This document shows, one piece after another, positions 1 to 23,024 of a stretch of 64,000 nt of DNA (position 1 is the first letter of the stretch; the number at the start of each line of letters is the position of its first letter). Location of the stretch: positions 23,590 to 87,589 of the forward strand of contig DASPPQ010000068.1 of NCBI GenBank assembly GCA_035625415.1. The letters run 5' to 3'. Source of the DNA: Thermodesulfobacteriota bacterium. GTDB lineage: Bacteria; Desulfobacterota; BSN033; UBA1163. The notes beneath the pieces are model-generated. The model worked only from the letters and a program-made list of their open reading frames with translations. It searched no databases and was not told where the DNA came from. The translations under genes were made by a program, and so were the position numbers.

Positions 1-287
1 GACCTTCTCCATTCCGCTTTGGCAAGACGAAGGATTGCGGAGATGAGTGTTCCCGCGTGGCTGATCCCGATGAAGAAGACGAAGTTGGTGATGTAGACTC
101 CCCAAAAGATCGGCCTCGCCAGCCCGGTCACGCCCAACCCATGACCGTACTGATAAAGGTAAGCCCATATTGCCCAGAGAATGACAGCGATGAGGATGGA
201 GAGGGTGAGGTAGAATGGCTTTCCTGTCCTTCTGATGGGCTCGAAAAGAGCGGCGTCTTCTTCTAATTTCAACGCTTTTTCTTCCAT
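1..287 (-). CDS. NrfD/PsrC-like polytopic membrane subunit (ActC-like), N-terminal part; gene runs off window start
   Basis: Minus-strand ATG at 287 overlaps the stop of the upstream FeS gene (TAATG). Translation [30 protein letters not shown]...[22 protein letters not shown] is paralogous to the N-terminus of the NrfD-like protein at 50396-51691. No stop before position 1. Confidence 0.6.
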
Positions 288-970
288 TACATTCCCTCTG
301 ACAGATAGATCACCTTAGGCTCCGTACCTAACTCTTCCATCAGTCTGAAGGCCCTCCTCTCACGTGAAAGGGTTGAGACGACGCTGTTGGGATCGTTCAG
401 ATCGCCAAAGTACATGGCGCCGCTCGGGCATGCCTGGACGCAGGCCGGGATATAATCTTCAGGCAGAAGGTCTCTTCCTTCAATCTTTGCCTTTTCTCTT
501 GCTCGGAGAAGACGGTGGCTGCAGAAAGTGCATTTCTCCACCACCCCCTTCGTTCTGACGGAGACATCTCGATTGAGGGAGCCTTTCAGTTCCCTTGGCC
601 ACTCGGGTGGATACCAGTTAAAGTATTTGACGGTGTAGGGGCAGGCGGTGGTGCAATAGCGGCAGCCAATGCATCGGTGATTGATCTGGCCCACAAGTCC
701 TTCTTCATTGATGTACGTAGCGTTGACCGGACAGACTTTTGTGCAGGGCGGATTGTCGCAATGCATGCAGGGGCGTGGAAGAAGCCTGGCTTTGATATGA
801 GGGTACTCCCCTTCGATATAAGAGATCAATTCGATCCAGTGAATGGTACGACCCTTGGCGGACTCTTCTGGCCCAATAATCGCCACATTGTTTTCTGCCT
901 GACAGGCGACCACGCAAGCCTGACAGGCGGTGCATTTATCTAAGTCAATGACCATTCCCCAGCGATGCAT
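287..970 (-). CDS. 4Fe-4S ferredoxin-type subunit of a complex iron-sulfur molybdoenzyme (PsrB/ActB2-like)
   Basis: 227 aa with four Cys clusters ([34 protein letters not shown]). Near-identical N- and C-termini to the paralog at 51681-52382. Confidence 0.8.
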
Positions 971-982
971 CTAAAACCCCTT

Positions 983-1131
983 AAACTCGAAACGCGACAT
1001 CCGAAATTCGAAACAATTCTATCTATTCTATCTAAATGACCAAAATGAGACGTCCAACACATTGCTGTTTTGAAAATTCGCATTTGGAATTTGTTTGGGA
1101 ATTCGATATTCGCATTTCGAATTTCATATTT
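983..1131. repeat. Imperfect palindromic intergenic element with CCAAAT/CGAAAT-type arms (family copy A)
   Basis: Left arm ...catccgaaattcgaaacaattc, right arm atttggaatttgtttgggaattcgatattcgcatttcgaatttc. Same motif family as 3531-3677, 14532-14659, 41688-41807, 48130-48282 and 54895-55036. Confidence 0.5.
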
Positions 1132-1137
1132 TTACAG

Positions 1138-3519
1138 TTAGGCTTTATAAATTTTGACGCGCGTGGATTCATTGATCGGGTATCCGGTCAAAGGATCCAA
1201 ATCTCCCCCGATGAGTCGATAAGGATTTTCCCCCAGGTTTTCGGACCAGCGACCTCCGGATTTGTGTCCCTCGCCAAAAGGAATACTTGCGACCTCCGGC
1301 ATGGCTCCCTTATAAAGGATTGCCCTTGCTTTTATCTTCGCCTTCGGGGATTCCACCCATACCCAGTCTTTATCCTCGACCCCAAGCCGCTTCGCCGTCT
1401 CAGGATTGATCTCCACCCATGTTTCCCATCTCTCAAACACATAGGATCCGACGCTGGCTTGAAGCCAGGGCTGGTTGGCATTGCGGCTGCCTGTCAGCGT
1501 CATTGTTCTAAATATGTTGAGATGAAATGGATACTCTTTTTTATCAGTTCTCTTCTCCGATTCCTCCCAATGGGGGAAGAAAGAAACATCTTTAGGATCA
1601 TAGGCCAAGGGTGGATGAGTTTGCTTCAATCCCTGCGCATAGAACTCGAATTTTTTTGTGGGGGTTCGAAAAACCCGATCCCATTCCTTAAAGTCATAGA
1701 TGGGGTCCCACCATCCCCCTTTCTCTTGAAGCTGTTTCCAGAACTCATCAAAGGTTTTGTAGGAAGGGGCTGCCCAGCCCCCTCTCTCAAGTAGACGGGT
1801 CCAGGCTTGTTCAAACTGGAGGCCGAAGACGTCGCCCCGTTTTGCGTCGAAAACCCCTTTGATCCCGTAAAGCAAGACTTCCTTAAAATCACTCCAGGGA
1901 AAGGCCTTCTGGATCTCTCCCCCTAGGGATTTTGTGATTTGAAGGAGGATGTCACCCGTCGCTTTCGTTTGATAGAGCGGCTCAACGATGGGTTGCCGGA
2001 TTCCGAGAACTGGAAACCCTTTGTTCAAAGAGACAGGATCATCCTGCCATCTTTCAAGGGGCGTATGGTCGGGTAGAATAAGGTCTGCGAATAGGGTCGT
2101 GTCGTCCATGTAGGGGGAAAAACTGACAATCAAAGGAATTTCCACAAAGGCCTTTAAGAAGAGATCTGGATTCGGATTCGAAAAGAGAGGATTACTGTAG
2201 TAAATAAACAGGGCTTCCGGGCGATACGGTTTTCCAGAGGCCGCATTTCTGGCAAAGAAATAGGGTTGCTGGAGCATCACGGAAGATTTCTTCACGCCAT
2301 CGATTCTTTCGACTCGCAGTCCCTTTTCAGCGACAGCATCTTTTCCAAACGGCGGAAGCGACTGAAGGGGAACCGTTCTCGGTACGAGGAGCCCTCCCGA
2401 GGCATCGATGTTACCCGCCAATCCGTTCAGGATTGAAACGGCCATCTGTTGGAAAGGACGATCCCGGAAGCCTATGGCGATAGAGGGCTGGTTTGATGCA
2501 AACTCCCGGGCCAGCCGGATGATCGAATCAACGGGCACGCCTGTCCGCCGAGACACGACATCAGAGTCGTATTCCGAAAGGACAAATTCCTTGAAACCGA
2601 GATGTTCTTTTCCGCTTGGGTCCGTCCAATTTTCAAACCCGGAACTGAGACTGGCCACAAATTCTTTATGGTAAAGTCCCTCCTTAATCATCATATTTGC
2701 AATGCCGAGAGCCAACAACCCTTCGGTTCCGGGCTGGATTGGAAGCCACTCGTCCGCTTTGATGCCGGTGACGGAGAGGCGCGGTTCAATCTGGACCAAT
2801 TTACCACGGCGTTCCGAGTTTCCCCTCCTGAATTGCCCATAAGCACTTAGGGCCTGCACGGGAGACCAGTACGATTCGAGGAGGTCCGAACCAAAAGAGA
2901 GTATGTATCGGACATTTTCGAAGTCATAAGCGGGCAGGGAATGGATTCCCTGAGTGAGATAGAGGCCCTCCATGGTTGGGCCTTCCCATTGAAACTGATT
3001 ATCGATATAATTGGGCGATCCAAAGGTCTCGAGAAAACGTTCCCAAAGACCTCTCATCAACCCCCGGTATCTTCCTCCCAGAAGCACAAGGCGATGAGGC
3101 TCTCCATTTTTCCGGAGTTTTCTCAGTGATTCGGTAACAACGGAAAGCGCCTCATCCCATGAGACCGGTTGCCATCGACCTTCGCCTCTCCTGCCCGACC
3201 TCTTTAAGGGAGTGCGAATGCGGTCCGGATCGTAGAGACCTTGGAGGCTTGCAATCCCTTTGGGACAGAGAGTCCCACGGTTGACAGGATGGAGGGGGTT
3301 TCCAACGATGTTGACGGCCCATCCGTCAATAATTCTAGCCAGTATTCCGCAGCCGCCTGTGCATTGCCCGCAAACGGTAGGAATCCACCTTTCGACACCA
3401 GGAGGATTTAGATTCTTGGCGACTGGGAATTGGGACCATTTCCAGAAACCGCCCCCGAGGGCAATAGCGGTGCCGGCCCCTGCACCCATCTTCAAAAAAT
3501 CCCTACGGCTGAGTTTCAT
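1138..3519 (-). CDS. TAT-exported molybdopterin-oxidoreductase family subunit (PsrA/ActB1-like)
   Basis: Twin-arginine signal MKLSRRDFLKMGAGAG. N-terminal C-x2-C-x3-C...C motif (VCGQCTGGCG...CPKG). About 790 aa with MopB-like length and order. The 20 aa upstream of the TAT Met in the ORF track are translated repeat, so the start is placed at 3519. Confidence 0.8.
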   Translation of the reverse strand: MKLSRRDFLKMGAGAGTAIALGGGFWKWSQFPVAKNLNPPGVERWIPTVCGQCTGGCGILARIIDGWAVNIVGNPLHPVNRGTLCPKGIASLQGLYDPDRIRTPLKRSGRRGEGRWQPVSWDEALSVVTESLRKLRKNGEPHRLVLLGGRYRGLMRGLWERFLETFGSPNYIDNQFQWEGPTMEGLYLTQGIHSLPAYDFENVRYILSFGSDLLESYWSPVQALSAYGQFRRGNSERRGKLVQIEPRLSVTGIKADEWLPIQPGTEGLLALGIANMMIKEGLYHKEFVASLSSGFENWTDPSGKEHLGFKEFVLSEYDSDVVSRRTGVPVDSIIRLAREFASNQPSIAIGFRDRPFQQMAVSILNGLAGNIDASGGLLVPRTVPLQSLPPFGKDAVAEKGLRVERIDGVKKSSVMLQQPYFFARNAASGKPYRPEALFIYYSNPLFSNPNPDLFLKAFVEIPLIVSFSPYMDDTTLFADLILPDHTPLERWQDDPVSLNKGFPVLGIRQPIVEPLYQTKATGDILLQITKSLGGEIQKAFPWSDFKEVLLYGIKGVFDAKRGDVFGLQFEQAWTRLLERGGWAAPSYKTFDEFWKQLQEKGGWWDPIYDFKEWDRVFRTPTKKFEFYAQGLKQTHPPLAYDPKDVSFFPHWEESEKRTDKKEYPFHLNIFRTMTLTGSRNANQPWLQASVGSYVFERWETWVEINPETAKRLGVEDKDWVWVESPKAKIKARAILYKGAMPEVASIPFGEGHKSGGRWSENLGENPYRLIGGDLDPLTGYPINESTRVKIYKA

Positions 3520-3530
3520 CGTATACTCAC

Positions 3531-3677
3531 CAAACTCCAAATTCCAAATTCCAAATCCCAAATCCCAAGTAAATCCCAAGCACCAATTTCAAAATTTCGG
3601 AACGATTTTATTTGAATTTTGAATTTTGCAGATTGGAGTTTATTTGGAATTTGGTGCTTGTCATTTGGTGCTTTCCT
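3531..3677. repeat. Imperfect palindromic intergenic element with (CCAAAT)n left arm and (ATTTGG)n right arm (family copy B)
   Basis: ccaaattccaaattccaaatcccaaatcccaag...aagcaccaatttc // gaatttggtgcttgtcatttggtgcttt. The arms are reverse complements. Spurious ORFs on both strands translate it. Confidence 0.6.
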
Positions 3678-3679
3678 CA

Positions 3680-4186
3680 TTAGACATGGCATTCCAAGCA
3701 ATCATTCGTTACTTTGTTCTCGGAATGGCAGTTCATGCACCAATTCATCGTCATCTTCACCCATGGCCTGGAGGGTGGTCGCTCGCTTTCAGCAATATTT
3801 CCATGGCAGGTCTGACATGGCAGTTTTCCTAGAACCACATGCCGACGGTGGGAAAAGAAGACGTGATCGGGTTCTCCGTATATTCGTCTCCAGGAAATTT
3901 CTCGTCCCTTTTTTTGATATTGTCTGATCTTTTCTTCTTCTGAGGATTTGGTAACCGGTTCTTTATGGCATTCAAGGCAGGTGGTTAGGTCAGGCATTCC
4001 GGAAAAGTTTTGAGTTTTAAAATAACGGTGACAGGAGTCGCACTCTAACCCCTGTTCAATATGTTTCTTATGGTTGAAGGAGATCGGTTGGCCAGTCCTG
4101 GAGCCAATGCCCAAACGGATGAGGAGGAAGAGTATAAGGAACCCTGCCGCCAATCCAATAAGGAAAAATTTCATGCTGTGAGCCAT
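3680..4186 (-). CDS. Pentahaem c-type cytochrome (ActA-like)
   Basis: Five CxxCH motifs (CDSCH, CLECH, CQTCH, CMNCH, CLECH). N-terminal membrane anchor. Lies immediately upstream of the Mo/FeS subunit genes. Confidence 0.75.
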   Translation of the reverse strand: MAHSMKFFLIGLAAGFLILFLLIRLGIGSRTGQPISFNHKKHIEQGLECDSCHRYFKTQNFSGMPDLTTCLECHKEPVTKSSEEEKIRQYQKKGREISWRRIYGEPDHVFFSHRRHVVLGKLPCQTCHGNIAESERPPSRPWVKMTMNWCMNCHSENKVTNDCLECHV

Positions 4187-4345
4187 TTGGTCACTGCCGA
4201 GCTATCCGGAGGATCACCCGACTCCAATAGATCGAATCATAAACAACGATCGTTATTGCAATGAATCTTAAGGGGAAGGGTCTTACAAATCAATACACTA
4301 AATTATGTATTTTTAAAGCAAAAAAACTGTATTTTGAAAAGGCGC

Positions 4346-5650
4346 CTAAATTTTTTTGAAAGTGCCTTTTCTCCAGCCTTGATCTTCTTCTTCGCGCCTG
4401 AAGCTGCGTTCAATATAGCTAACGTGGCTGAATTCCCCTGCCTCAATGGGGATGGCCACCTTCATCAACAGGGTGAAGATGAGGAGCCCTGTTGCCCAGA
4501 TGCCGAAAGACACCATGAGCTCTAAGTGATTGGGAAAATATTCGAAGATTTCGCCGAGAGGATCCGGGACAAACCCGGGTATCACAAAACCGGGTCCCTT
4601 CTCGATCCATACCCCGATGATAATGAGTAAACAGCCCAAATTTAGGGTGGTTAATCGTTTCCGGGTTTGGGGAATCAGAAAGATGATGAATGCGATGACA
4701 TTCATCGTCATCGCCGACCATATCCAAGGCACGAGCTCCTTGTGGCCGTGGAGGCCTTCGAACAGGTATTTAAAGGCTGCAATATGAACCGTTTGAGAAT
4801 AATACTCCTTAAATATCTCGGCAGAGAGAAGAAACAGGTTGAGAAACATGGCGTAGGCGATTAGTTCTGATATCTTGAAGAGGGCATTATCCTCTATCTC
4901 TATATGGTGCACGGATACCTTCCGGATGATCTGAAAAATAATGATGATGATGGCAGGCCCTGAGCAGAAGGCACTGGCCAGAAACCTCGGGGCAAGGATC
5001 GATGCATTCCAGAAGGGACGGGCAGGAAGGCCATTATAAAGGAAGGCCGTGACAGTGTGGATGGCCACCGCCATGGGGATGGAGATTAAGATAAAAGGAA
5101 GAATAAACTTCCAGTTGGGCTCTTTCCGGTAGTAGAACTTGACTAAAAGGTAGATCGGGATAAGAAGGTTCAGGAATAGATAACCGTTGAGGGCAAGGAC
5201 ATCCCAGGCCAAAAGCGATTGGGGAAAGTTCATCAGTCCTATGAAAGGAAGCATGTGCCAGAATCGGTCGAGCCTCCCGAGGTCGACCATCACAAAGAGA
5301 ATGGCCATGACGATGGAGGAGGCGGCGAAGAGCTCACCGAGCACGACAATCTCTTTGATCGGCTTGAAATGGTAGACATAAGACGGAATGACCAGAAGAA
5401 CCGCGGCTGCAGCCGCCCCGACCAGATACGTGAAATTGGCAATGTAGAGGCCCCAGGAAACCTGATCATTCATTTTTGTTGCGATCAGACCTAAATCGTG
5501 TTGCCTCATATAAAATAGAAAACCCATGCCGATGATCGCCATGAGGGAGAAACACCAGGCATAGTACAGGCTGCTCCCTGTTACCACAAGGGTCAAGGTC
5601 CTCTTGTAAAAATGCCATGTTTCATTCAATATTTCCCGCAACTTTTCCAT
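4346..5650 (-). CDS. NrfD/PsrC-family integral membrane protein (ActF/ActC-like)
   Basis: 434 aa, highly hydrophobic with about 10 predicted helices. Lies between the TAT FeS gene and the pentahaem cytochrome gene. Confidence 0.6.
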   Translation of the reverse strand: MEKLREILNETWHFYKRTLTLVVTGSSLYYAWCFSLMAIIGMGFLFYMRQHDLGLIATKMNDQVSWGLYIANFTYLVGAAAAAVLLVIPSYVYHFKPIKEIVVLGELFAASSIVMAILFVMVDLGRLDRFWHMLPFIGLMNFPQSLLAWDVLALNGYLFLNLLIPIYLLVKFYYRKEPNWKFILPFILISIPMAVAIHTVTAFLYNGLPARPFWNASILAPRFLASAFCSGPAIIIIIFQIIRKVSVHHIEIEDNALFKISELIAYAMFLNLFLLSAEIFKEYYSQTVHIAAFKYLFEGLHGHKELVPWIWSAMTMNVIAFIIFLIPQTRKRLTTLNLGCLLIIIGVWIEKGPGFVIPGFVPDPLGEIFEYFPNHLELMVSFGIWATGLLIFTLLMKVAIPIEAGEFSHVSYIERSFRREEEDQGWRKGTFKKI

Positions 5651-5658
5651 ATGCTTTT

Positions 5659-6564
5659 CTATGCTTCAAAGAAGTAATAAAACTTCGGTTCTGTACCTAA
5701 ATCTTCCTTGAGCCTGAAGACCCGCTTTCGATCGATGATATACCGCATTTCGCTATTCGGGTCGAGGAGGTTGCCAAATTTCCTCGTTCCCGTAGGGCAA
5801 GCTTCCACGCAGGCGGGATACCTTCCTTGCCTTACGCGCTGGATACAAAACGTGCATTTTTCCACAGCACACTTCATTCTGGGTCGGTTTCCCAGGTAAT
5901 GGACGGAAGGGTTTATCTCCTCTCTCGGAATGTTTGGCTCCGCCCAGTTGAAAACCCTCCCTTTATAGGGACAGGCTGCGATGCAGTATCTGCAGCCGAT
6001 GCACCAGTTGTAATCAACCACGACGATACCGTCCGGTTCTTGCCAAGTGGCGTGGACAGGGCACACCTTCACACAAGGAGGCTCCTGACATTGCTGACAC
6101 TGAACGGGAAGATAGATAAATCCCTTTTCCGGAACGAGATCAGGATTGTAATAATGTTCTGAGTCTTCAAGATTGATCAGGTTTCCTCTTTTGAGCCTGA
6201 GAACCCTAATCCACTGAAGTTGAGGGTCATGTCGTGAATGGTTATTTTCTTTTACACAGGCGTAAACGCATCTTCGACAGCCAATACATCGGGAAAGCTC
6301 CAGGCCATATGCCCAAAGCGTGTCGGGAACTGCCTCCTGGGTGCTAATTTGAAATTTCCTTCCATACTTTTGCAAGTACCTCTCTTCCAGCTTGGCAATG
6401 ACGCGCCTCTTCTCTTCCAGTGTCATTTCCCGAAAATGTTTCTGTAAAAAGTCCTCGGCCTCCTCCTTCGTGCAGGAGGAGAAGAGGGGGATAGCAAGAC
6501 CTCCTAGGGCAGTCAGTGAAGCATTACGAAGAAACTCTCTTCGGGTGAAACGTCTATTTAGCAT
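5659..6564 (-). CDS. TAT-exported 4Fe-4S cluster protein (NrfC/DsrO/HmcB-like)
   Basis: RREFLRNASLTALGG twin-arginine signal. Four Cys clusters (CIGCRRCVYAC, CQQCQEPPC, CIGCRYCIAAC, CTFCIQR). Confidence 0.7.
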   Translation of the reverse strand: MLNRRFTRREFLRNASLTALGGLAIPLFSSCTKEEAEDFLQKHFREMTLEEKRRVIAKLEERYLQKYGRKFQISTQEAVPDTLWAYGLELSRCIGCRRCVYACVKENNHSRHDPQLQWIRVLRLKRGNLINLEDSEHYYNPDLVPEKGFIYLPVQCQQCQEPPCVKVCPVHATWQEPDGIVVVDYNWCIGCRYCIAACPYKGRVFNWAEPNIPREEINPSVHYLGNRPRMKCAVEKCTFCIQRVRQGRYPACVEACPTGTRKFGNLLDPNSEMRYIIDRKRVFRLKEDLGTEPKFYYFFEA

Positions 6565-7067
6565 TACGAATCCTTTGGTTTTATTGGTGGAGGCTCGGGT
6601 TTTATCGGTTTGAATTTTGGCTGGTGAGGATCGTGGCAGTGAGCACAGAGATAGTAGGTTCTCTTGCCGGATCCCATAAAGTATCCAGTTCTTTTTCCAT
6701 GAATGCCCGCCTTCCAGTCATTATACACAAAACCGTGGCATTCCCCGCAGAGCCGATAGCTTTCAGTGAAGGGAATCAAATCCCCATTATACAGCCGCAG
6801 TTTATCTCGATTCTTCGCATCATGGCAATCAAGACACCACCGCATCGACTCGGCGTGATGGAGCTTGATATCGGTGTGCTCTTCCTTCAAGACTCTCTTC
6901 TTCCGATTCACCTCCATCGAGGCATGACAGTTGCTGCAGGGAAACAATCCCTCTGTCATTGGAGGTGGAGCGACAGGGAACTCTTCGCCCGCCCCATTTG
7001 AAAAGGACGCAAAACAAAGCCCTAACGAAAGCATCCCCAATGCGATGGTCTTGACTGTTTTCTTCAT
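6564..7067 (-). CDS. Periplasmic tetrahaem c-type cytochrome
   Basis: Signal peptide MKKTVKTIALGMLSLGLCFASF. Four CxxCH motifs (CSNCH, CLDCH, CGECH, CAHCH). First gene of the minus-strand operon. Confidence 0.7.
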   Translation of the reverse strand: MKKTVKTIALGMLSLGLCFASFSNGAGEEFPVAPPPMTEGLFPCSNCHASMEVNRKKRVLKEEHTDIKLHHAESMRWCLDCHDAKNRDKLRLYNGDLIPFTESYRLCGECHGFVYNDWKAGIHGKRTGYFMGSGKRTYYLCAHCHDPHQPKFKPIKPEPPPIKPKDS

Positions 7068-7272
7068 TCGTGAACGGCAACTGGGCAGGAGAGAAGGAGT
7101 TTAGTCATTGATCCGAAAGACTGGTGCTACTAAAAACCTTCCCAATAAATCCAACAAAAAAACTTTATTATAATCTGTTAACATCTTCAACGACAAAAAG
7201 CAAATACTTTGGAATCCCGCTCCTTCTGCATCACAGCTTGCAAAGGGGCTGTCTATGTGATAATTTTTCTCC

Positions 7273-8070
7273 ATGCAGGTCGATATTCAACTGGTTCCAT
7301 CTCCACCGAATTCAGATGCCCTTTTAAATCGAACAGTCGTTGTCGTCGATGTTCTGAGAGCGACTTCTGTCATGGTCAATGCGATATCCCAGGGAGCCTT
7401 GGAGATTCTCCCTTTGGCCGGTGTGGAGGAGGCTCTTCAGATGGCTAAGGTTTTTCCGCGGGGTTCCGTGCTTTTAGGCGGGGAGAGGGAAAGTAAGAGT
7501 ATACCGGGATTTGATTTAGGGAATTCTCCCAAAGAGTATGTCGCCGAAAGTGTGAAAGGGAAGAAACTGATCCTGACGACGACCAACGGAACAAAGGCGT
7601 TTCATTTGGTTTCTTCCGGGAAAGAAGTTTTAGTGGGAAGTTTTCTTAACATTGGAGCCGTGGCACGGAGATGTCTTGAGTCAGGGAGGGAGCTGCTCAT
7701 TTTCCTCTCAGGGGATGAAGGAGGTTTTTCTCTGGAGGACACAGTCTGCGGAGGAATGTTGATCGGTCTGATCACAAAGAAAAGGAAGAAATCTATTTCT
7801 CTGACGGATGCCTCCAGATGCGCCCAGATTCTTTATCAAAGATTCAAAAATAATTTATTAGAAGCTTTTCACCTCTCCTATCATGGAAAACAGTTGATTA
7901 ACCGTGGTTTTGAGGATGACCTTGACTATTGCGCTCAAATCGATATTACCTCCCTTGTCCCCGTATTTAGAGAAGGGGTGATCAGGGCCCCCTCATCCCC
8001 ACCCTCTCCCGCGCGGGGAGAGGGGAAGGGTGAGGGGCGTTATGCGATGCAAATTGAGGAGAACGAGTGA
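7273..8070 (+). CDS. 2-phosphosulfolactate phosphatase (ComB) family protein
   Basis: VVVVDVLRATSVMVNA and LGNSPKE motifs are typical of the ComB family. ATGA overlap with the next gene. Confidence 0.5.
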   Translation: MQVDIQLVPSPPNSDALLNRTVVVVDVLRATSVMVNAISQGALEILPLAGVEEALQMAKVFPRGSVLLGGERESKSIPGFDLGNSPKEYVAESVKGKKLILTTTNGTKAFHLVSSGKEVLVGSFLNIGAVARRCLESGRELLIFLSGDEGGFSLEDTVCGGMLIGLITKKRKKSISLTDASRCAQILYQRFKNNLLEAFHLSYHGKQLINRGFEDDLDYCAQIDITSLVPVFREGVIRAPSSPPSPARGEGKGEGRYAMQIEENE

Positions 8071-8540
8071 TGCGACGCCGAGATCGGGAATTAAAGAATA
8101 AGGAAACCCTCTTAGCCATTTTAGAGCAGTCCCCTGTCGGAAGGATGGCCACCGTTAATCGAAAGGGCTATCCGGTGATCAAACCTGTCAACTTTATTTA
8201 TTGGAACGGAAGGATCTATCTCCACTCTTCAACGAAAGGGGAGAAGATCAGCGACATCCGTCGGGGCAGTTCCGTCTGTTTTGAAGTGGACGAGCCTATT
8301 GCCTACGTGGCGGCAGTGGAACCCGCCTGCAAGAGCACATATTACTATCGAAGCGTTATCGTCAAGGGAAGTGCTATCATTGTGAGTCAGGTTGACAGAA
8401 AATTGGAAATTCTCGAAAGACTGATGGAAAAATACCAGCCGGAGGGGGGCTACCAAGGAGTGGCCCCGGAGATTCTGAAGAGAACAGCGGTGATCGAAAT
8501 CTCTATTCGTGAAATGACCGGAAAGGAACATCTGGGTTAG
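8067..8540 (+). CDS. Pyridoxamine 5'-phosphate oxidase-like FMN-binding split-barrel protein
   Basis: 157 aa with a PNPOx/NimA-like pattern (GRMATVNRKGYPVIKPVNF...RIYLHSS). Translationally coupled to both neighbours. Confidence 0.5.
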   Translation: MMRRRDRELKNKETLLAILEQSPVGRMATVNRKGYPVIKPVNFIYWNGRIYLHSSTKGEKISDIRRGSSVCFEVDEPIAYVAAVEPACKSTYYYRSVIVKGSAIIVSQVDRKLEILERLMEKYQPEGGYQGVAPEILKRTAVIEISIREMTGKEHLG

Positions 8541-9761
8541 ATGAAATCTTCTGTCTCTATTGTCAAGTGCAAAGAATATGATGAAGAAAAGGTCTTGAGC
8601 GCGCTTCGCCAGGCCATCGACCTGATCGGAGGGATTCAAACTTTTGTAAACAAAGACAGTCGTGCTCGGCTCGGGGCGCTCTCCTCTCGGCGCTCGTCTC
8701 TCGGCAAAGCCGAGGGAAGCCGAGGGAAGCCACGGGTTCTCCTTAAACCTAATCTCCTTTACGGAAAACCTCCAGAAAAAGCTGTGACGACTCATCCCTC
8801 TGTCGTGAGGGGGATGATCCAGATCGTTCGAGAGGCGGGAGGAGTCCCTTTTATTGGAGATAGTCCTTCGGTCGGAAGTTTGACGAGGACGGCTGAGAAA
8901 GCTGGCATCAAGGCAGTGGCCGATAAGATGAAGTGCCCTCTTGTGGAATTCAACAGACCTGTTCTCCCTTTGAAAGGCGGAGGGAGAACATTTAGACAAT
9001 TGGAAGTTGACCAGACTGTTTTGGAAGCGGATGTGATCATCAACCTTCCTAAATTCAAAACCCATAGCCTGACGCTTCTCACCCTGGGGGTAAAGAACCT
9101 CTTCGGGTGTATCCCCGGACCTAAGAAAGCCTTATGGCATCTCAAGGCAGGAGATGATCGAAAAATCTTTGCCCAAATACTTTTTGATATCTCCCAGGTG
9201 ATCCAGCCCTCCCTCTCCATTTTGGATGGGATTGTGGGGATGGAAGGGAATGGACCGAATAGCGGCCGCCCGATTCCAATAGGATTGGTTCTGGCAAGCG
9301 GGGACCCCTTGAGTTTGGATCAGATCGTATGTGACCTGTTAGGGATTTCAAGGGAATCTCTGTTAACGAATCGTGTGGCGCTTGAACAGGGGATGGGAAA
9401 AGATCCGATTGAGGTTCTGGGGGAAAGGGTACAAGATCTTAAGATTTCCAACTTCCAGTTTCCAGCCCTCTCTCAGCCGGATTGGCACTTACCGGCAATC
9501 TTGAGAAAGGCGTTGAAGAATGCTCTGACTTCCAAACCAGTGATCGATGACGAAGTATGCAAGGATTGTGATCAATGTGCAAAGATCTGCCCACCCCAAG
9601 CCCTAACGAGAAAGGGAACGGATTTGATCTTTGATTACGGAGAATGCATTCGTTGCTTCTGTTGTCTTGAGGTCTGCTCAGAAGGAGCCATCTCGATCAA
9701 ACCAGGATGGGCCTTGAAGCTCGTCAGTGGAAGGTCGAAGGTGGAAAGTGGAAAGCAGTAG
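8541..9761 (+). CDS. DUF362 domain protein with C-terminal 4Fe-4S dicluster
   Basis: DUF362-like core plus CKDCDQCAKICP and CIRCFCCLEVC motifs. Contains a low-complexity insertion (SSRRSSLGKAEGSRGKPR) encoded by a short tandem gccgagggaa repeat. Confidence 0.5.
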   Translation: MKSSVSIVKCKEYDEEKVLSALRQAIDLIGGIQTFVNKDSRARLGALSSRRSSLGKAEGSRGKPRVLLKPNLLYGKPPEKAVTTHPSVVRGMIQIVREAGGVPFIGDSPSVGSLTRTAEKAGIKAVADKMKCPLVEFNRPVLPLKGGGRTFRQLEVDQTVLEADVIINLPKFKTHSLTLLTLGVKNLFGCIPGPKKALWHLKAGDDRKIFAQILFDISQVIQPSLSILDGIVGMEGNGPNSGRPIPIGLVLASGDPLSLDQIVCDLLGISRESLLTNRVALEQGMGKDPIEVLGERVQDLKISNFQFPALSQPDWHLPAILRKALKNALTSKPVIDDEVCKDCDQCAKICPPQALTRKGTDLIFDYGECIRCFCCLEVCSEGAISIKPGWALKLVSGRSKVESGKQ

Positions 9762-11162: not shown

Positions 11163-12296
11163 CTATATTCTAATCAATTCATATTCCCTTGTGCCCATCC
11201 CGATTTCTTCGGCATAGGCAAGCTGAATACTCCAGTTAACCAGCGGATAAATCGCTCTAAATTTGTCTTCTCCGGGTTTCCAGGCTCCTGTGAGTTTGGA
11301 AGTTCGGTTTCCTTCCTGCCCATTCACCAAATCAACCGACGCCTGATCGATGGCAACCGGGTCCTCGGAAGAAAGGATCCCGATATCGTTGACAATCGGT
11401 GTATCAGAATATCCGTAGCAGTCACAGGCGGGAGAGATTTGAGTGAGAAAGTTTAAGTGAAGCGTCTTTCCCTTTTTCTTCTGGATAACTCCATAGGCAT
11501 ACTCCACCATTTTCTTTTGAAAAATAGGGACGCTCTCGTTCCATTGGATTTCAATAGCCCCTGAAGAACAGGTGAGGATGCATTCTCCGCACCCGATGCA
11601 TTTTTTGGGATCGATAAAGGCAATACCCTGTTTGGTTTCGACCTCCGACTGCGGTGGCCGCATCGAGATGGCTTCCTGTGAGCACCGGCTAAGACAGGCC
11701 TTACATCCCTTGCAGGCTTTGCCCTTGACTTGGGGTGAGATATTTGAATGCTGACTCAGCTTTCCTTCACGGCTGGCGCACCCCATTCCCAGATTCTTCA
11801 AGGCTCCTCCGAACCCGGACAATTCATGACCTTTGAAATGGGTGACCGCAATCAGTCCATCCGCCATATAGATCTCTCGGGCGATGGAGACTGTTTTGAA
11901 AATGGGTTTGTCAATCCGAACCTTGACGGCACTATTGCCTCTCAAACCATCGGCAATCAGGATAGGGGCATTCACGACAGACTCTGTGAACCCGTTTTCA
12001 AAAGCGGTGATTAGATGGGAGACCGCTTCACCCCGAGTTCCAACATAGAGGGTGTTGGCATCGGTTAAGAAAGGCTTCCCTTTATATTGTTTGACTCGAT
12101 CCACCACCCTTCGTAAAAAGATGGGTCGAACAAAGGCCGTATTTCCTTTCTCCCCAAAATGGAGTTTAATCGCCACCAAATCCTTCTCCCGGATCTTTCC
12201 CTTCAGATCAGCCCGATCCAGAAGGATGTCCAATTTGTCCAGGAGGGTTTTCCCGGGTTCAACCCTGAGATCCGAAAAAAAGACAGAACTCTCCAT
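11163..12296 (-). CDS. DUF362 domain protein with 4Fe-4S dicluster insertion (second paralog)
   Basis: 377 aa. CKGCKACLSRC and CIGCGECILTC motifs. Core resembles the protein at 8541-9761. Confidence 0.5.
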   Translation of the reverse strand: MESSVFFSDLRVEPGKTLLDKLDILLDRADLKGKIREKDLVAIKLHFGEKGNTAFVRPIFLRRVVDRVKQYKGKPFLTDANTLYVGTRGEAVSHLITAFENGFTESVVNAPILIADGLRGNSAVKVRIDKPIFKTVSIAREIYMADGLIAVTHFKGHELSGFGGALKNLGMGCASREGKLSQHSNISPQVKGKACKGCKACLSRCSQEAISMRPPQSEVETKQGIAFIDPKKCIGCGECILTCSSGAIEIQWNESVPIFQKKMVEYAYGVIQKKKGKTLHLNFLTQISPACDCYGYSDTPIVNDIGILSSEDPVAIDQASVDLVNGQEGNRTSKLTGAWKPGEDKFRAIYPLVNWSIQLAYAEEIGMGTREYELIRI

Positions 12297-17130: not shown

Positions 17131-17139
17131 AATAAATAA

Positions 17140-17291
17140 AAAGGCCGAATTGAAATAAGCGGGGGAACCAGTTTTTAGGGGTGAATTCTAGACATCTAGA
17201 GAGGATATCCCTTAATCCTAACCCGTCAGCTAACTCCGCAGGCGACTAAGGGAGAGAATCGAACGCAGGGGATCCTCCTCTGCTTTTTTTT
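17140..17291 (+). promoter_or_regulatory. Candidate c-di-AMP (ydaO/kimA-class) riboswitch leader with intrinsic terminator, upstream of kdp operon
   Basis: Contains GCGGGGGAACC, GGGGTGAAT and ACCCGTCAGCTAACTCCGCAGGCG, recalled from memory as c-di-AMP riboswitch signature blocks. Ends in hairpin gcagggg-atcct-cctctgc plus T8. Confidence 0.5.
17265..17291 (+). terminator. Rho-independent terminator/attenuator hairpin + T-run in kdp leader
   Basis: 7-bp GC-rich stem (one G-U pair), 5-nt loop, followed by tttttttt. About 195 nt upstream of the first kdp-associated ORF. Confidence 0.6.
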
Positions 17292-17724: not shown

Positions 17725-19554
17725 ATGTTTATCCAAATCTGGCTTCTACCTTTTTGTTTACTCGCAGCAGCGACCCTGATCGCGTTCCCTTTGAGTCGCT
17801 ACATGGGGTGGATCATGGATGGGAAATACCGGCCTTTGCCGGTGCTGGGCTGGTTCGAAAAGCGTTTGGACAGTGGCTCCCAGAACTGGAAGCAGTATAC
17901 CATCGCATTGCTCATTTTCAACACGCTGATGTTCATCTATGGCTATGTGGTTCTGTCACTCCAGCAGTGGATGCCACTCAATCCGGACGGCAAGGGGATG
18001 ATTTTCCCCACGACTATCTTTCAAGCCGTGACCTCCTTCATGACGAACACGGACCTCCAGCACTATTCGGGCGAACAGGTTTTGTCAAACTTCAGCCAGA
18101 TTTTCTTTGCCATCTTTATGCTGTTTGTGTCTGCGGCGGTCGGCCTATGTGCACTGACTGCGATGATCCGACTCTTCCGTGGCGAGTCCAAAATTGGCAA
18201 CTTCTTTGTAGACATGTGGCGGGTGCTGGTTTACATGTTCGTGCCGACCGCCTTGATTCTCGCCTTCATCTTTATGGTCCAGGGTAGTCCGATGACCTTT
18301 AAAAGTTCTTACCAGGTTTCCACACTCGAACCTGCGGCCATGGGAACCACGGACAAGGGCGAGGCAAAGCAGCAGACGATCATAGTGGGGCCGGTGGCAG
18401 CATTCGAGTCTATGAAGATGCTTGGAACCAACGGGGGTGGATTTTACGGCATGAATTCCGCGCACCCATTTGAAAATCCGACGGGGTTCACGAATTTTTT
18501 CAACACTCTGGGCATGATGATCTTTCCGTTTGCCCTCGTGTTGATGTATGGCCGAATGCTCGGCCGGATGCGGCATGCCTACGTCATTTTCTCAGTCATG
18601 TTGGTGTTGATGGCTGGCACGATCGTCTGGGCAGTCTACTACGATACACTGAAACCAAACCCGGGATTAACCGGCCATCCTATTGCACGAACATACGAAA
18701 TTCCCAGTGGAACAGCACCGGGTGGAAAACGAGTAGTAAGTCTGCCAGCACTCCCAGGGCTGCCGGTGGACCAGTACCTGGGTAACCTTGAAGGGAAGGA
18801 AATGCGATTCGGGATTTCGGCAGGGGCCACCTTCGATGCACTGACGACAGATGTGACGTGCGGCGCGGTGAATGCAGAGGAGAACAGCCTCAACCCGATT
18901 GCAGCCTTGTCGCCCATGGTCGGGATGTGGCTCAACTGTATCTACGGCGGCAAGGGGGTAGGGATGATCAATCTGTTGCTCTACTTAATCATCGGGATCT
19001 TCGTGGCTGGGATGATGGTGGGCCGGACTCCCGAGTATCTGGGTAAGAAAATCGGGGGCCGGGAGGTGAAACTGGCAATCATCGCCCTGCTGGTCCACCC
19101 CTTCATGATTCTCTTCCCTACCGGGCTGTTTGCTGCGACAAGCTGGGGGCTCAAGGCAGTCAGCAACCCTGGTGCGGATGGCTTTTCACAAATCCTGTAC
19201 AACTTTTCCTCGGCCTCCGCCAATAATGGCTCGGCATTCGACGGATTATCAGTTGCCTATGGTTTGGTAAGTAATGCAAATCCGGCGCCGACAGCGATCC
19301 CATGGAATATCGCAGCGGGCCTCGTTGTCGTCTTCAGCCGTTATCTGCCGATTGTGGCGCCGATCGCCATGGCAGCATTTCTCGGAGAGAAGAAATCGAG
19401 CCCTTTTGGTCTGGGGACCCTGCGCGATGATACAGTTACCTTCGGTCTCCTCCTGATCGGGACGATTCTTATCGTCGGAGCGCTCCTTTTTTTGCCTGTC
19501 GCAGCACTGGGACCGCTTGCAGAACACTTAGGTCCCATTCCTTTCGGAGGCTGA
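17725..19554 (+). CDS. kdpA: Potassium-transporting ATPase subunit A
   Basis: 609 aa polytopic protein with typical KdpA selectivity-filter-like repeats (NGGGF region). Sits between kdpF and kdpB. Confidence 0.9.
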
Positions 19555-19754
19555 CCAGGAAGCCTTTATGGCTGCTTATTAAGAAACTTCATTGGTGCCC
19601 TAACAATGATGAATTGCGAGATGAATCAAAGGAGTCCGATATGAATAGAGTACCCGATAGTAAAGAAACCGTGGAGACAGTTCCCTTCAGTTCGGAGCAG
19701 CCGCGATCACTGCGCCGTGTGAAGCCAAGAGGGTTGATAGAAAAGGAAACCGGG

Positions 19755-21803
19755 ATGGCGGCCTTGAAACAGGCTTTCGTGATGCTGCGGCCTGATATCC
19801 AATGGAAGAATCCTGTGATGTTTGTGGTCGAGGTGGGCGCCTTTCTGACCCTTCTGTTTATCGTACAGGCGGCATGGGGTAGGCAGACCAGTCAGGTTCC
19901 GATTGCGTATTTTATCGCCCTTGACGCATGGCTTTTTCTGACGGTTTTGTTTGCGAATTTTGCAACAGCCCTTGCCGAGGCTCGTGGTAAAGCCCAGGCC
20001 GATTCACTCAGGCGAGCCCGTCACGACACGGTGGCCTACCGTTTGAATGTTGCCGGAGCCGTCGAGGAAGTTTCCTCGACGGTTTTGAAACTTGGCGATC
20101 GGGTGGTCATACAGGCAGGGCAAACGATTCCCGGGGACGGGGAGATCATTGAAGGGATCGCCTCCGTGGATGAGTCGGCGATTACTGGCGAATCGGCGCC
20201 GGTCATCCGCGCCGCGGGCGGCGACCGATCGGGCGTGACCGGAGGCACCGTGGTCCTTTCGGATCGGATCATTGTTCGGATTACCAGCGGGGCTGGTGAT
20301 TCGTTCCTCGACCGTATGATCGCGCTGGTGGAAGGGGCCATCCGTCAGCGATCTCCGAATGAGATTGCTCTCACATTATTACTGTCGGCCTTTACACTGG
20401 TCTTCTTGATCGTCGTCATTCCGCTTTGGCCCATGGCCTGGAACGCCGAACAGTATATGATGGGATATCTAGGTCTCCAAGAACCCTTGAGGAGTCTCGG
20501 CACGGATGTTCCGACCCTCATTGCGCTCCTGGTCTGCCTCATCCCCACTACGATTGGCGCTTTGCTTGCAGCCATCGGGATTGCAGGCATGGATCGCGCG
20601 CTACAGGCCAACATCATCGCTAAGAGTGGCAAGGCAGTGGAGTTAGCTGGTGACATCGACGTTGTGCTCCTCGACAAGACGGGCACGATCACGATAGGGA
20701 ACCGGAACGCAACAACCTTCTTGCCAATCGGAAAGTATTCGGCTGCCGACGTTGGGCGGCTTGCTGCCATAGCGTCCGCCGCTGACGAGACTCCTGAGGG
20801 AAAGAGCATCGTCAGGTTGTTCGAGAAGCAAAGCCGAACTCCGGTCATCGTGCCGCCGGACGCCCAGTTTGTGCCATTTACAGCCCAAACGCGCATGAGC
20901 GGCATCGATCTTCCTGACGGCCGGCGAATACGAAAAGGAGCGCCAGACGCCATCACGAAATTCGTCGAGAGCAAGCAAGGCAGCGTGCCGGGTGATCTCA
21001 ATGCATTGGTTGATAGCGTCGCATCCAAAGGGGCAACGCCCTTAGTCGTGGCTGATGACGGCCACATTGCGGGTCTGGTCGTTCTTGAGGATATCCTGAA
21101 ACCTCATATGCGGGAGCGCTTCGTGCGGCTGAGGAAGATGGGACTTAGGACCGTCATGATCACCGGGGATAACCCTCTCACGGCTGCGACCATTGCCGCA
21201 CGAGCAGGGGTCGATGACTTTCTCGCCCAGGCCACGCCCGAGACCAAGCTCTCTTATATCCGTAAGGAGCAGGCTGGTGGAAAGCTTGTCGCCATGATGG
21301 GAGACGGCACGAACGACGCACCGGCTCTGGCCCAGGCGGACGTTGCCCTCGCCATGAACGCAGGTACGCAGGCAGCTAAAGAAGCGGCCAACATGGTCGA
21401 TTTGGACAGTGACCCCACCAAGTTGATCGAGGTGGTAGAAGTGGGAAAGCAGCTTTTGATAACGCGAGGCGCCTTGACGACCTTCTCAATAGCCAATGAC
21501 GTGGCCAAATACTTTGCGATTATTCCAGCGCTATTTGCAGGGACTTTGCCATGGCTCAAGGCGGTTGACATCATGCATCTGCATTCACCGACCTCAGCCA
21601 TCCTGTCGGCTATCATCTTTAACGCGCTCATCATCCCTGCGCTCATCCCCGTCGCACTCAAAGGAGTTAAATACCGGCCTCTCGGTGCCGATGCTCTGTT
21701 GCGCAGGAACCTTCTGATCTGGGGACTGGGAGGCGTGATTCTACCGTTTATCGGCATCAAACTGATTGATCTCATCATGGTGGGTTTTCATTTGACCATT
21801 TGA
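19755..21803 (+). CDS. kdpB: Potassium-transporting ATPase subunit B (P-type ATPase)
   Basis: DKTGTIT phosphorylation motif, TGDN and [10 protein letters not shown], about 682 aa from the Met at 19755. The ORF could start earlier, at 19614 or 19641. Confidence 0.9.
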
Positions 21804-21873
21804 TTTGAAGTGAAGCAAGCCTGCCAATCCACCCCGGTCCAGACCGCGAGCGGTGCAGGCAAGGAGGCATAAT

Positions 21874-22893
21874 ATGTTACAAACCCTTTGGAAGAGCATT
21901 TTGTTGCTGTTATTTGCTGTGGTCATCTGTTGCGTTCTTTACCCGCTGGTTTTATGGGTGATCGGACAGGCCGCCTTTTCCTTTCGGGCTAACGGCAGTC
22001 TGCTGAGAGGTCCCGACGGCAAACCGGTGGGATCGCGGCTTATTGCACAACCCTTTACCAAGGACGAATACTTTCAGCCCCGCCCCTCTGCAGCGTCTTA
22101 CGATGCGTCTGCCTCTTCCTCGTCATCCTTGTCCGCCTCCAACTACGCGCTGCGCGACCGGGTCGCCCGGGCACTTGGTCCAATTGTGAAATATCGAAGT
22201 GGCCCCAAAGTCAGACAGCCTGTGGCACTGGACATCGAAAACTGGTTTCAAAAGGATATATTCCAAGGCAAGCCTCACATCGTGGCTCAGTGGGCGGACC
22301 TGCACAACGGCCTGGCGCAAGCGTGGGTCAAGGCGGACCCCAAGAATGGCGCATATGTAGACGGTTGGACAAAGGCTCATCCAGCTATAGTCGCCCAATG
22401 GATCAAGGACAATCCCGGTACGCCTCAACCAAAGGCCGATGATTTGGCCGTCGTGTTCTTTGTGAACTTCTCCACGGAGAACCCCGGTAGATTCCCTTCT
22501 CTTGTCAGCCGCACAGGAGCCGATGGCAAGACCAAAACAACGATTGAACCGGTCAAGGAGGGGTCCGATATTCAATCGATCTTCTTTGACATGTGGCGGC
22601 AGGATCATCCCGAGGCTGACCTTCAGGACGTTCCCGGCGATCTGGTAACCACTTCCGGTTCCGGGCTCGATCCCCATATTACGCTTCAAAACGCCGAGTT
22701 TCAATTGGATCGGATCGCCTCGAAATGGGCCGCCAACTTAAAACGCGATCCGAAGGTAGTCCAAAAAGAGATTGAGGAGATATTGCAGGAAAACGCTTCG
22801 GCCCCATGGTTTGGGCTCGCGGGTGAGAAGCTCGTGAATGTCCTTGAGGTCAATCTCGAACTTCGGAGGCGGTACGGAGCACCATCGCCATAA
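21874..22893 (+). CDS. kdpC: Potassium-transporting ATPase subunit C with a roughly 150-aa internal insertion
   Basis: N-terminus (VLYPLVLWVIGQAAFSFRANGSL) and C-terminus (TTSGSGLDPHITLQNAEF...VNVLEVNLELRR) match KdpC. The middle segment (about residues 95-245) has no counterpart in 190-aa KdpC proteins. Confidence 0.75.
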   Translation: MLQTLWKSILLLLFAVVICCVLYPLVLWVIGQAAFSFRANGSLLRGPDGKPVGSRLIAQPFTKDEYFQPRPSAASYDASASSSSSLSASNYALRDRVARALGPIVKYRSGPKVRQPVALDIENWFQKDIFQGKPHIVAQWADLHNGLAQAWVKADPKNGAYVDGWTKAHPAIVAQWIKDNPGTPQPKADDLAVVFFVNFSTENPGRFPSLVSRTGADGKTKTTIEPVKEGSDIQSIFFDMWRQDHPEADLQDVPGDLVTTSGSGLDPHITLQNAEFQLDRIASKWAANLKRDPKVVQKEIEEILQENASAPWFGLAGEKLVNVLEVNLELRRRYGAPSP

Positions 22894-22959
22894 GTGGGTA
22901 ACGCAAGATCGGGCAGGGATAGCCTTTATAGACATGGAGACATAAGTCCTGTGGGGTTT

Positions 22960-23024
22960 GTCATTCCGGGCTTGACCCGGAATCCAGTTATTTCCCCCCT
23001 GGATTCCTGCTTCGTAGGAATGAC
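22960..23024. repeat. Nested-stem structured element X1 (outer GTCATTCC/GGAATGAC, inner GGAATCCAG/CTGGATTC, two local hairpins)
   Basis: gtcattcc-gggcttgaccc-ggaatccag-ttatttcccccc-ctggattc-ctgcttcgtag-gaatgac. A second copy with compensatory hairpin changes is at 38070-38145. Confidence 0.5.

Follow-up and report, generated by a model that had tools for sequence, protein, structure and literature searches.

Two adjacent gene sets for putative quinone-interacting modules, one of alternative complex III type, in a Thermodesulfobacteriota bacterium

The stretch of DNA analyzed here (the window, 64,000 nt in length) comes from an uncultured Thermodesulfobacteriota bacterium (assembly GCA_035625415.1, contig DASPPQ010000068.1, positions 23,590–87,589 of the forward strand). 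Positions 1–7067 of the window harbor a cluster of seven co-oriented genes on the minus strand, in the order cyt4, FeS_O, NrfD_P, cyt5, MopB, FeS_C and NrfD2. Six of the open reading frames (ORFs) are complete in the window; the seventh, NrfD2, runs past its edge. Domains were assigned using Pfam and NCBIfam, and solved relatives were identified by sequence search against structures. Both databases support the domain of each gene; together with the ORFs and motifs, they confirmed the gene order given in a preliminary description of this DNA. With moderate confidence, we read the cluster as two adjacent, co-oriented gene sets for periplasm-facing, quinone-interacting modules: one trio (cyt4, FeS_O and NrfD_P) and one four-gene Act-like unit (cyt5 to NrfD2), which resembles part of alternative complex III (ACIII).

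The first gene of the trio, cyt4 (6564–7067), encodes one 167-residue protein with four CXXCH motifs (tetrahaem) and one N-terminal hydrophobic signal or anchor. FeS_O (5659–6564) overlaps cyt4 by one base. It encodes a ferredoxin-like, four-cluster iron–sulfur (FeS) protein of NrfC/PsrB/DsrO type, which is 301 residues in length and contains one twin-arginine translocation (TAT) motif, RREFLR, and four Cys groups. NrfD_P (4346–5650) is of DsrP type; it encodes 434 residues (Pfam NrfD, 6e-36), which form about 10 transmembrane helices (TMHs). In the Act-like unit, the ActA/QrcA-like cyt5 (3680–4186; 168 residues) has five CXXCH motifs (pentahaem) and one N-terminal transmembrane helix. It is followed by the ActB1-like MopB (1138–3519; 793 residues), which carries a TAT signal and is of the molybdopterin-oxidoreductase fold. 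FeS_C (287–970; 227 residues) is ActB2/QrcC-like; it contains 16 Cys in four groups and is without signal peptide. NrfD2 (1–287) encodes an ActC-like NrfD protein with 10 TMHs, of which only the first 95 codons are inside the window; its start at 287 overlaps the FeS_C stop (TAATG). The MopB ORF as listed (1138–3579) is 813 residues in length, starts with TTG and extends into an intergenic repeat. The ATG at 3519 (MKLSRRDFLK, 793 residues) is most likely the true start. The same over-extended 813-residue start, caused by the repeat between cyt5 and MopB, is found in the database entry P0001, whose MopB is 100% identical. MopB residues are numbered on the translation of 3522–1138, in which Met is residue 2.

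The preliminary description had likened the four-gene core to the ActA-B1-B2-C part of ACIII with a split ActB, and the solved structures bear this out. Cyt5 matched four solved ActA chains with E-values of 4e-24 to 2e-20 (8k9e_A, 4e-24; also 6btm_A, 6f0k_A and 6lod_A); its top NCBIfam model is QrcA, with a score of 122 bits that is below the cutoff of 180. FeS_C aligned to the ActB2 domain of 6f0k_B at 5e-62, with every Cys group matched, and its top NCBIfam model, QrcC, also stayed below the cutoff (305 bits, cutoff 400). The protein is probably exported as a TAT hitch-hiker with MopB. The 95-residue NrfD2 fragment is 73–92% identical to the N-termini of 445-residue NrfD proteins from related loci. 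One full-length orthologue (L002:13227–14564; 91% identical over the 95 residues of the window) matched ActC (6f0k_C) at 3e-72 and 247 bits, and ActF at 1e-10; on the NCBIfam QrcD model it scored 41 bits, with a cutoff of 570. Among the residues listed for the quinol pocket and proton path of Rhodothermus marinus ActC (PMC5928083), the orthologue keeps W82, I86, F89, H97, T100, S103, L166, D169, H247 and V250; the first six of these lie within the fragment of the window. Owing to the solved-structure matches and to scores below cutoff for all Qrc models, cyt5, MopB, FeS_C and NrfD2 are assigned from their sequences to the ACIII/Qrc lineage, as an ActA-B1-B2-C unit whose ActB is split and whose membrane subunit is of ActC type.

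MopB has three molybdopterin-oxidoreductase domains above the Pfam threshold (Molybdop_Fe4S4, Molybdopterin and Molydop_binding), plus TAT_signal. Its best solved relative is ArrA (5e-84, 286 bits, residues 38–767), followed by PsrA (4e-49, 170 bits); the solved ActB/ActB1 proteins are matched at about 1e-16 and about 62 bits. In NCBIfam, the scores were 293 bits for ArrA (cutoff 1600), 283 bits for QrcB (cutoff 440) and 276 bits for PhsA (cutoff 694). That ArrA is the best solved relative agrees with the reported placement of ActB as sister to ArrA/ArxA (PMC10100899). MopB retains the N-terminal Cys motif of the FS0 [4Fe-4S] cluster, CX2CX3CX27C (C51, C54, C58 and C86), followed by CPKG. These Cys are invariant in 16 relatives, down to 42% identity, and are present in 132–140 of about 141 family representatives. 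As the preliminary description had stated, solved B1 subunits differ in this respect: the two solved ActB1 proteins aligned (8k9e_B and 6btm_B) have no Cys at the FS0 positions, and the B1 of R. marinus ACIII is without prosthetic group (PMC5928083).

Different from FS0, the molybdenum (Mo) site is degenerate. In the HMMER alignment, ArrA Cys193 aligns with Trp179 of MopB, and PsrA Cys173 aligns with a gap. Of seven ArrA active-site residues (the numbering fits a chain offset of 40), only Arg165 and Tyr166 are retained, as R151 and Y152. The other five are replaced; besides the ligand Cys, these are His189 (Asn), Ser190 (Gln), Lys198 (Met) and Tyr210 (Leu). At the position after Trp179 the residue varies (E, S or D), and most family representatives show a gap there; a ligand-type residue (Cys, Sec, Ser or Asp) is not conserved among them at the ligand position.

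The loss is family-wide. The family set contains the 150 representatives listed (50%-identity clusters), which score 398–857 bits, all above the 286 bits to ArrA; almost none of them has a Cys at the ligand site. Seven interspersed relatives retain an HSxxC motif, and they were compared column by column with 119 ligand-less members. The ligand-less group lost the His and Cys of HSxxC, the Tyr210 equivalent, one Arg-Pro pair (W219 and S220 in the query), the Asp of PGTD (Glu in the query) and the RG loop (deleted in the query), plus K672, E678 and N768. In total, about 15 columns without variation among the HSxxC relatives were lost, whereas the scaffold and FS0 were kept; the query is identical at 134 of the 187 columns conserved in the HSxxC group. 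When ten representatives were scanned with NCBIfam, QrcB was the best or co-best match, always below cutoff; one of the ten, P0259 (1020 residues), is a B1-B2 fusion. A homologue search from P0232, the representative that most resembles QrcB, gave only unnamed 'molybdopterin-dependent oxidoreductase' entries and no bona fide QrcB. In five metagenome loci (L063, L067, L068, L069 and L080), the fourth FS0 Cys is replaced by Gly (GGLGPKG), which suggests an independent, stepwise loss of FS0 within the family.

The preliminary description had left room for a genuine chalcogen or polysulfide reductase, and these data bear directly on it. According to this explanation, MopB would be a Mo- or tungsten (W)-bisPGD reductase connected to the multihaem cytochromes, with polysulfide, thiosulfate, arsenate or some other chalcogen or oxyanion as its substrate. 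The full-length match to ArrA, the three Pfam domains, the retention of FS0, the CPKG Lys, R151 and Y152, and the strong purifying selection on MopB (67–87% identity across metagenome-assembled genomes, MAGs) are in its favor. However, the ligand and the active-site columns invariant in the HSxxC relatives are gone, all catalytic NCBIfam models scored far below cutoff, the partner subunits are closest to those of ACIII, and the related ActB1 and QrcB are cofactor-less (PMC5928083, PMC6303296 and PMC13059093). Such a reductase is therefore highly improbable, and a genuine molybdoenzyme was rejected on the ligand and active-site evidence. We conclude that MopB is predicted to be a non-catalytic ActB1/QrcB-type subunit that retains FS0; because the Mo ligand and the active-site residues are gone, it is not expected to act as a reductase, and we infer the absence of the pterin cofactor from the sequence and by analogy with ActB1 and QrcB.

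The trio shares an architecture of one small multihaem cytochrome c, one TAT-exported four-cluster FeS protein and one cofactor-less NrfD-family subunit, encoded together. The preliminary description had assigned it to the DsrJOP/NrfBCD type, and the NCBIfam scores uphold that at the level of type: NrfD_P scored 403.9 bits on DsrP, above the cutoff of 350, and FeS_O scored 183.7 bits on DsrO, below the cutoff of 200. The solved relatives are generic; the best one for FeS_O is PsrB (9e-31). For NrfD_P, the best solved relative is ActC, and the match is weak (2.8e-11, 46 bits); no ActF match was found at E below 0.01. Cyt4 matched Paired_CXXCH_1 (4e-08) and Cytochrome_C7 (2e-06) in Pfam and is 70–86% identical across related loci. 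Its matches to Cytochrom_NNT (0.0032), napC_nirT (0.0014) and NrfB (0.006) are only weak, and no solved homologue was found by sequence (best E 0.067). The DsrJ model gave no match at E up to 0.01, and cyt4 has four haem motifs, not three; DsrJ is described as a membrane-anchored trihaem cytochrome with His/Cys ligation (PMC10861901). No DsrM- or DsrK-like gene lies beside the trio, either in the window or in locus L104. In the other loci, the upstream ORFs, which were not annotated further, matched no cluster seed protein. As DsrM, DsrK and DsrJ are all missing, a bona fide DsrJOP was rejected.

Two published systems help to place the trio. In the Geobacter Cbc4 complex, the tetrahaem CbcS, the four-cluster CbcT and the membrane subunit CbcU were proposed to form a quinol:cytochrome c oxidoreductase (10.1101/2025.04.14.648717). 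What DsrJOP does is still described as an enigma (PMC10861901). NrfD_P is extremely conserved and abundant: the best 120 homologues listed all share at least 84% identity with it, and NCBI gives some of them the name DsrP; near-identical proteins such as P0317, P0321, P0353 and P0378 carry the name 'sulfate reduction electron transfer complex DsrMKJOP subunit DsrP', because the homologues pass the equivalog cutoff. This naming is likely a systematic over-annotation in Thermodesulfobacteriota MAGs.

To define how far the arrangement extends, 24 genome loci were compared, mostly labelled as Thermodesulfobacteriota, Deltaproteobacteria, Syntrophaceae or Syntrophorhabdus MAGs; metagenome loci were found from an 8-sequence alignment. 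Where MopB identity is at least 65% and the contig is long enough, the seven-gene order is kept (about 17 genome loci). It is also kept in several metagenome loci and in L104 (GCA_040960625.1), which in addition shares the flanking genes of the window; overall, the same-strand order was observed in about 25 loci. After NrfD2, the orthologous loci encode two proteins of about 400 residues, each with four CXXCH motifs in class-I cytochrome c domains, and no ActD-, ActE- or ActF-like gene was found after NrfD2 in loci of this clade. Loci with 32–49% MopB identity keep cyt5, MopB, the FeS gene and NrfD, usually followed by tetrahaem cytochromes, and the trio was never observed in them. In the most distant loci (L084, L092, L093 and L098–L102), ActC is followed by ActD-, ActE- and ActF-like genes. 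B is split in some of them, and one has a fused ActB of 1041 residues that still carries the FS0 Cys.

In a rough neighbor-joining (NJ) distance tree of MopB, midpoint-rooted, without bootstrap and built without true QrcB or solved ActB1 sequences, the trio-bearing loci form one derived clade inside the cytochrome-associated, ligand-less group, and the HSxxC sequences fall outside that group. The trio is joined to the Act-like unit only in this clade (MopB at least 65% identical). Two loci break the arrangement. In L010, no trio adjoins the Act-like genes. In L021 (5210–8892), the trio and cyt5 are separated by an additional stretch that codes for FeS-like and MopB-like sequence; this second MopB has H-x-x-x-C in the ligand region, lies apart from the ligand-less group in the NJ tree and may be a catalytic enzyme that uses the neighboring modules.

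Transcription signals were searched using a consensus promoter and terminator scanner and a cross-locus alignment of the gaps. Upstream of cyt4, the scanner identified one good promoter-like site (7196..7167, 10/12 match). It lies in a promoter-like region at 7167–7203 on the minus strand, in which the conserved TTGCTT-17-(TG)TTAACAG overlaps TTGTCG-18-TATAAT; the block TTGCnTTTT...GATGTTA (7203..7175) is conserved in most of the 23 aligned cyt4 upstream sequences. In the NrfD_P-to-cyt5 gap, the scanner found no promoter above threshold, and the promoter-like block before cyt5 (4265–4310, minus strand) emerged only from the cross-locus alignment. This block, which is conserved in the 25 aligned gap sequences, contains TTGATT-17-TAAGAT (4293..4265) and one perfect palindrome, ATACA-N8-TGTAT (4293–4310), which shares part of the −35-like hexamer; in a second group of loci, the gap carries TTGCAT...TGnTATAAG instead. 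The palindrome is unique in the window (0.08 expected), its exact form recurs in three loci, and it is a candidate regulator-binding site. In orthologous loci, a protein that binds cyclic nucleoside monophosphate (cNMP) is encoded downstream of the cluster. Because conserved promoter-like blocks precede both cyt4 and cyt5, the trio and the Act-like unit probably each have their own promoter; the cyt5 promoter looks regulated, read-through from the trio is possible, and the two sets are possibly co-transcribed.

The spacing of about 160 nt between the trio and the Act-like unit is not specific to that boundary, because the cyt5-MopB and MopB-FeS_C gaps are long inverted repeats. Both repeats are imperfect and on the minus strand. 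The first (3520–3679) has the low-complexity units AAATTCCAAAT and ATTTGGAATTT; the minimum free energy of its RNA is −41.6 kcal/mol (z −3.1). For the second (971–1137), with the low-complexity units GAAATTCGAAATGCG and CGCGTTTCGAGTTT, the value is −38.2 kcal/mol, with a weak z of −1.8. The two repeats may act as mRNA-stabilizing or processing hairpins, or may be elements like repetitive extragenic palindromes (REP).

These observations bear on the composition of the putative complex. The preliminary description had presented the seven genes as one extended module. Part of this stood: the order is conserved in the clade, and the scanner found no terminator-like site between the two sets. As one module it remains unproven, since the trio is present in one clade only, L021 carries the insertion, L010 has no trio beside the unit and two promoter-like blocks were found. 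In its strongest form, the seven genes and the two downstream cytochromes would build one ACIII-like supercomplex with two NrfD-type subunits, in which NrfD_P stands at the place of ActF, still with its own FeS protein and cytochrome, and the second arm is connected through FS0 of B1 to the otherwise dead-end FeS branch of B2. Besides the conserved order, this fits the absence of ActD and ActF from the cluster, whereas ACIII needs an ActC/ActF pair (PMC5928083), as well as the grouping of ActC, ActF and DsrP in the same NrfD-family group (PMC8076601) and the role of FeS2-4 in ACIII, which is called elusive, with FeS4 near the surface (PMC5928083). On the other hand, the relatives at 32–49% MopB identity have neither ActF nor the trio, which argues that a single-NrfD core works alone, and NrfD_P has no ActF match and only 46 bits to ActC. 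Taken with the block before cyt5 and the two deviating loci, this makes one supercomplex quite unlikely.

An evolutionary version, that the nine genes are a single ancestral-looking ACIII in which both NrfD subunits have their own FeS and cytochrome partners, is in our judgment very unlikely. If true, FS0 of B1 would join the FeS2-4 branch of B2 to the second arm. It would show ACIII, with its orphan ActF and dead-end FeS wire, arising from two NrfCD-type modules and one Arr-like molybdoenzyme, and quinones might cycle from one site to the other, a scheme already suggested for DsrMK and DsrJOP.

The direction of electron flow is the other point on which readings differ. In reverse operation, as for QrcABCD in sulfate reducers, periplasmic cytochromes that receive electrons from hydrogenases, formate dehydrogenases or external donors would pass them on and reduce menaquinone electrogenically. 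Several features would suit a Qrc-like complex: the host belongs to the Thermodesulfobacteriota; QrcA and QrcC lead the NCBIfam matches for cyt5 and FeS_C; QrcB is co-top for MopB and also for the 10 family representatives; and a single NrfD stands next to B2 with no ActD, ActE or ActF. Class-I cytochromes c are typical of higher potential. The downstream partners in the orthologous loci are of this class and not type I c3, the four Qrc models all scored below cutoff, and NrfD2 has 41 bits to QrcD versus 247 bits to ActC. Furthermore, QrcD and ActC form separate clades with different modes of energy conservation (PMC6303296), and QrcB is described as free of redox cofactors (PMC13059093), whereas FS0 is kept here. 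Reverse operation is thus unlikely. A bona fide Qrc was rejected, since all four equivalog cutoffs were missed and NrfD2 is ActC-like.

Returning to two adjacent modules, the following mechanism can be proposed. MopB (B1), through its TAT signal, would carry the signal-less FeS_C (B2) across the membrane and scaffold the periplasmic arm. Menaquinol would be oxidized at the ActC-like NrfD2, which would also provide the proton path. The electrons would first reach the FeS_C cluster nearest to the membrane, then travel through the five haems of the anchored cyt5 and arrive at the tetrahaem class-I cytochromes, which would hand them to a periplasmic or terminal acceptor. FS0 of B1 would lengthen the FeS side branch of B2 by one cluster. 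The trio would be a second quinol:cytochrome c module, similar to NrfBCD, Cbc4 or DsrJOP, which was added once in this lineage with its own promoter-like sequence.

Several points weigh against this proposal. The clade is known from sequence alone, from which the direction of electron flow is not readable, and the close relative Qrc runs the opposite way. The strict seven-gene order, the lack of a terminator-like site between the sets, and the lack of ActD and ActF would also fit one single larger complex. The two class-I cytochromes, with which the cluster is predicted to continue past the window edge, come from the orthologous loci and not from the window. In NrfD2, ActC Asp253 is replaced by Val, and the equivalent of His139 is ambiguous. 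For MopB, the loss of a protein ligand alone leaves room for a pterin cofactor; arsenite oxidase is not known to have any protein ligand to its Mo. The CPKG Lys is also kept in the clade, and in true enzymes a Lys of this type links FS0 to the pterin. The preliminary description had named two findings that would tell against its own view, degenerate Mo-ligand and pterin-contact residues and a separately transcribed trio with its own promoter; both are largely what the in silico analysis found.

The genes around the cluster were also inspected. Downstream in L002 (17116–22185), and likewise in L003, L017, L028, L035 and L104, are encoded the cNMP-binding protein (157 residues), a 592-residue GltD-like NAD(P)H/FeS flavoprotein with a ferredoxin domain, and a Rieske/cytochrome b6-type complex together with a 273-residue multihaem cytochrome; the cytochrome b scored 276 bits on ExtP (cutoff 290). 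Because these respiratory genes directly follow the cluster in the orthologous loci, the seven genes are part of a larger respiratory island. On the other side of the cluster in the window are one 2-phosphosulfolactate-phosphatase-like gene (7273–8070) and one PNPOx-like gene (8067–8540), a flank that is conserved in L104. Two DUF362 proteins (8541–9761 and 11163–12296) flank truA, and the corresponding pair in L104 is annotated with Fer4 ferredoxin domains. Further away, a c-di-AMP riboswitch (17133–17259; 98 bits, E 5e-22) lies upstream of kdpA-kdpB-kdpC; the genes, at 17725–26601, continue with an OmpL-like porin and then a sensor of KdpD type that has USP and GAF domains. The link of riboswitch and kdp genes is a standard association and is unrelated to the respiratory cluster.

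The cluster is of interest beyond this locus. The FS0-retaining, ligand-less ActB1-like proteins form a very large unnamed family; all 150 listed representatives score above ArrA, and the named members come from Thermodesulfobacteriota, Elusimicrobia, Armatimonadetes, Coatesbacteria and an Archangiaceae (myxobacterial) MAG. The family bridges the Arr-type molybdoenzymes and the cofactor-less B1 of solved ACIII, and the stepwise loss of catalysis should therefore be traceable. The cluster is abundant in Thermodesulfobacteriota MAGs from soil, peat and aquifers, in which it is probably a main quinol:cytochrome c route beside the Rieske/cytochrome b complex. The DsrP name given by NCBI, when DsrM, DsrK and DsrJ are missing, can inflate the sulfur-cycling potential inferred in MAG surveys.

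Compared to ACIII (ActABCDEF, solved for R. marinus, Flavobacterium johnsoniae, Roseiflexus and Chloroflexus), the Act-like unit shares the anchored pentahaem ActA, the gene order A-B-C, a TAT-exported B1 of MopB fold without Mo ligand, the four-cluster B2 and a 10-TMH ActC, most quinol-pocket residues of which are conserved in NrfD2. Different from ACIII, ActB is encoded by two genes, B1 keeps the FS0 that is absent in solved ActB1 and is closer to ArrA than to solved ActB1 (286 versus about 62 bits), and two tetrahaem class-I cytochromes take the place of ActD, the monohaem ActE and ActF. With QrcABCD, which is from the same phylum, the unit shares one multihaem cytochrome, one pterin-less MopB-like protein, one four-cluster FeS protein and one 10-TMH NrfD, with separate B and C genes and with QrcA, QrcB and QrcC as top or co-top NCBIfam matches; it differs from QrcABCD in the four missed equivalog cutoffs, the ActC-like membrane subunit, the class-I partner cytochromes and the retained FS0, QrcB being reported as free of redox cofactors (PMC13059093). 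ArrA and PsrA/PhsA resemble MopB in the full-length fold, the TAT signal, FS0 and the equivalents of Arg165 and Tyr166; MopB differs from them in having no Mo-ligand Cys and in the replacement of other substrate-binding residues.

For the trio, DsrJOP, NrfBCD and Geobacter Cbc4 (CbcSTU) have the same cytochrome-FeS-NrfD architecture; the DsrP cutoff is passed and the DsrO cutoff missed, and Cbc4 likewise pairs a tetrahaem cytochrome of roughly 160 residues with an FeS protein and a membrane subunit (10.1101/2025.04.14.648717). The trio differs from DsrMKJOP in its tetrahaem rather than trihaem cytochrome, which the DsrJ model does not match at E up to 0.01, and in having no DsrM- or DsrK-like gene beside it in the window or in L104. 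There is no NrfA, and the matches of cyt4 give no more than a hint of homology to CbcS or NrfB (E of about 1e-3).

By description, two published clusters are also close. The actAB1B2CDEF clusters of neutrophilic iron oxidizers (Kato et al. 2015) have the same split actB1/actB2, and their actB1, with CX2CX3CX27C, was placed in the ACIII-Qrc clade of the MopB family (PMC4643136). They differ in keeping actD, actE and actF, in having no upstream cytochrome-FeS-NrfD trio, and in host phylum and presumed physiology. In the candidate phylum MBNT15 (Begmatov et al. 2022), ActABC-type genes and quinol-oxidizing cytochrome-FeS-NrfD modules occur in the same locus (PMC9386147). Its ACIII-like cluster 4 encodes a four-haem ActE-like protein, lies far from oxidase genes and was suggested to pass electrons to periplasmic multihaem cytochromes; split ActB is a known variant there as well (PMC9386147). 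In MBNT15, however, ActD is present, and the extra modules belong to operons that run in the opposite direction, whereas here the trio lies immediately upstream on the same strand. The split B1 with FS0, to which the preliminary description had pointed, is not new; it was already published for the iron oxidizers (PMC4643136), and so was an ACIII-like cluster beside cytochrome-FeS-NrfD modules (PMC9386147). As far as we could find, three aspects are undescribed: the DsrP-type trio directly upstream of an Act-like unit that has two tetrahaem cytochromes and no ActD, ActE or ActF; the size of the FS0-retaining, ligand-less family; and the set of columns that this family has lost. Measured against these systems, the cluster represents an interesting variation on known machinery rather than a new enzyme.

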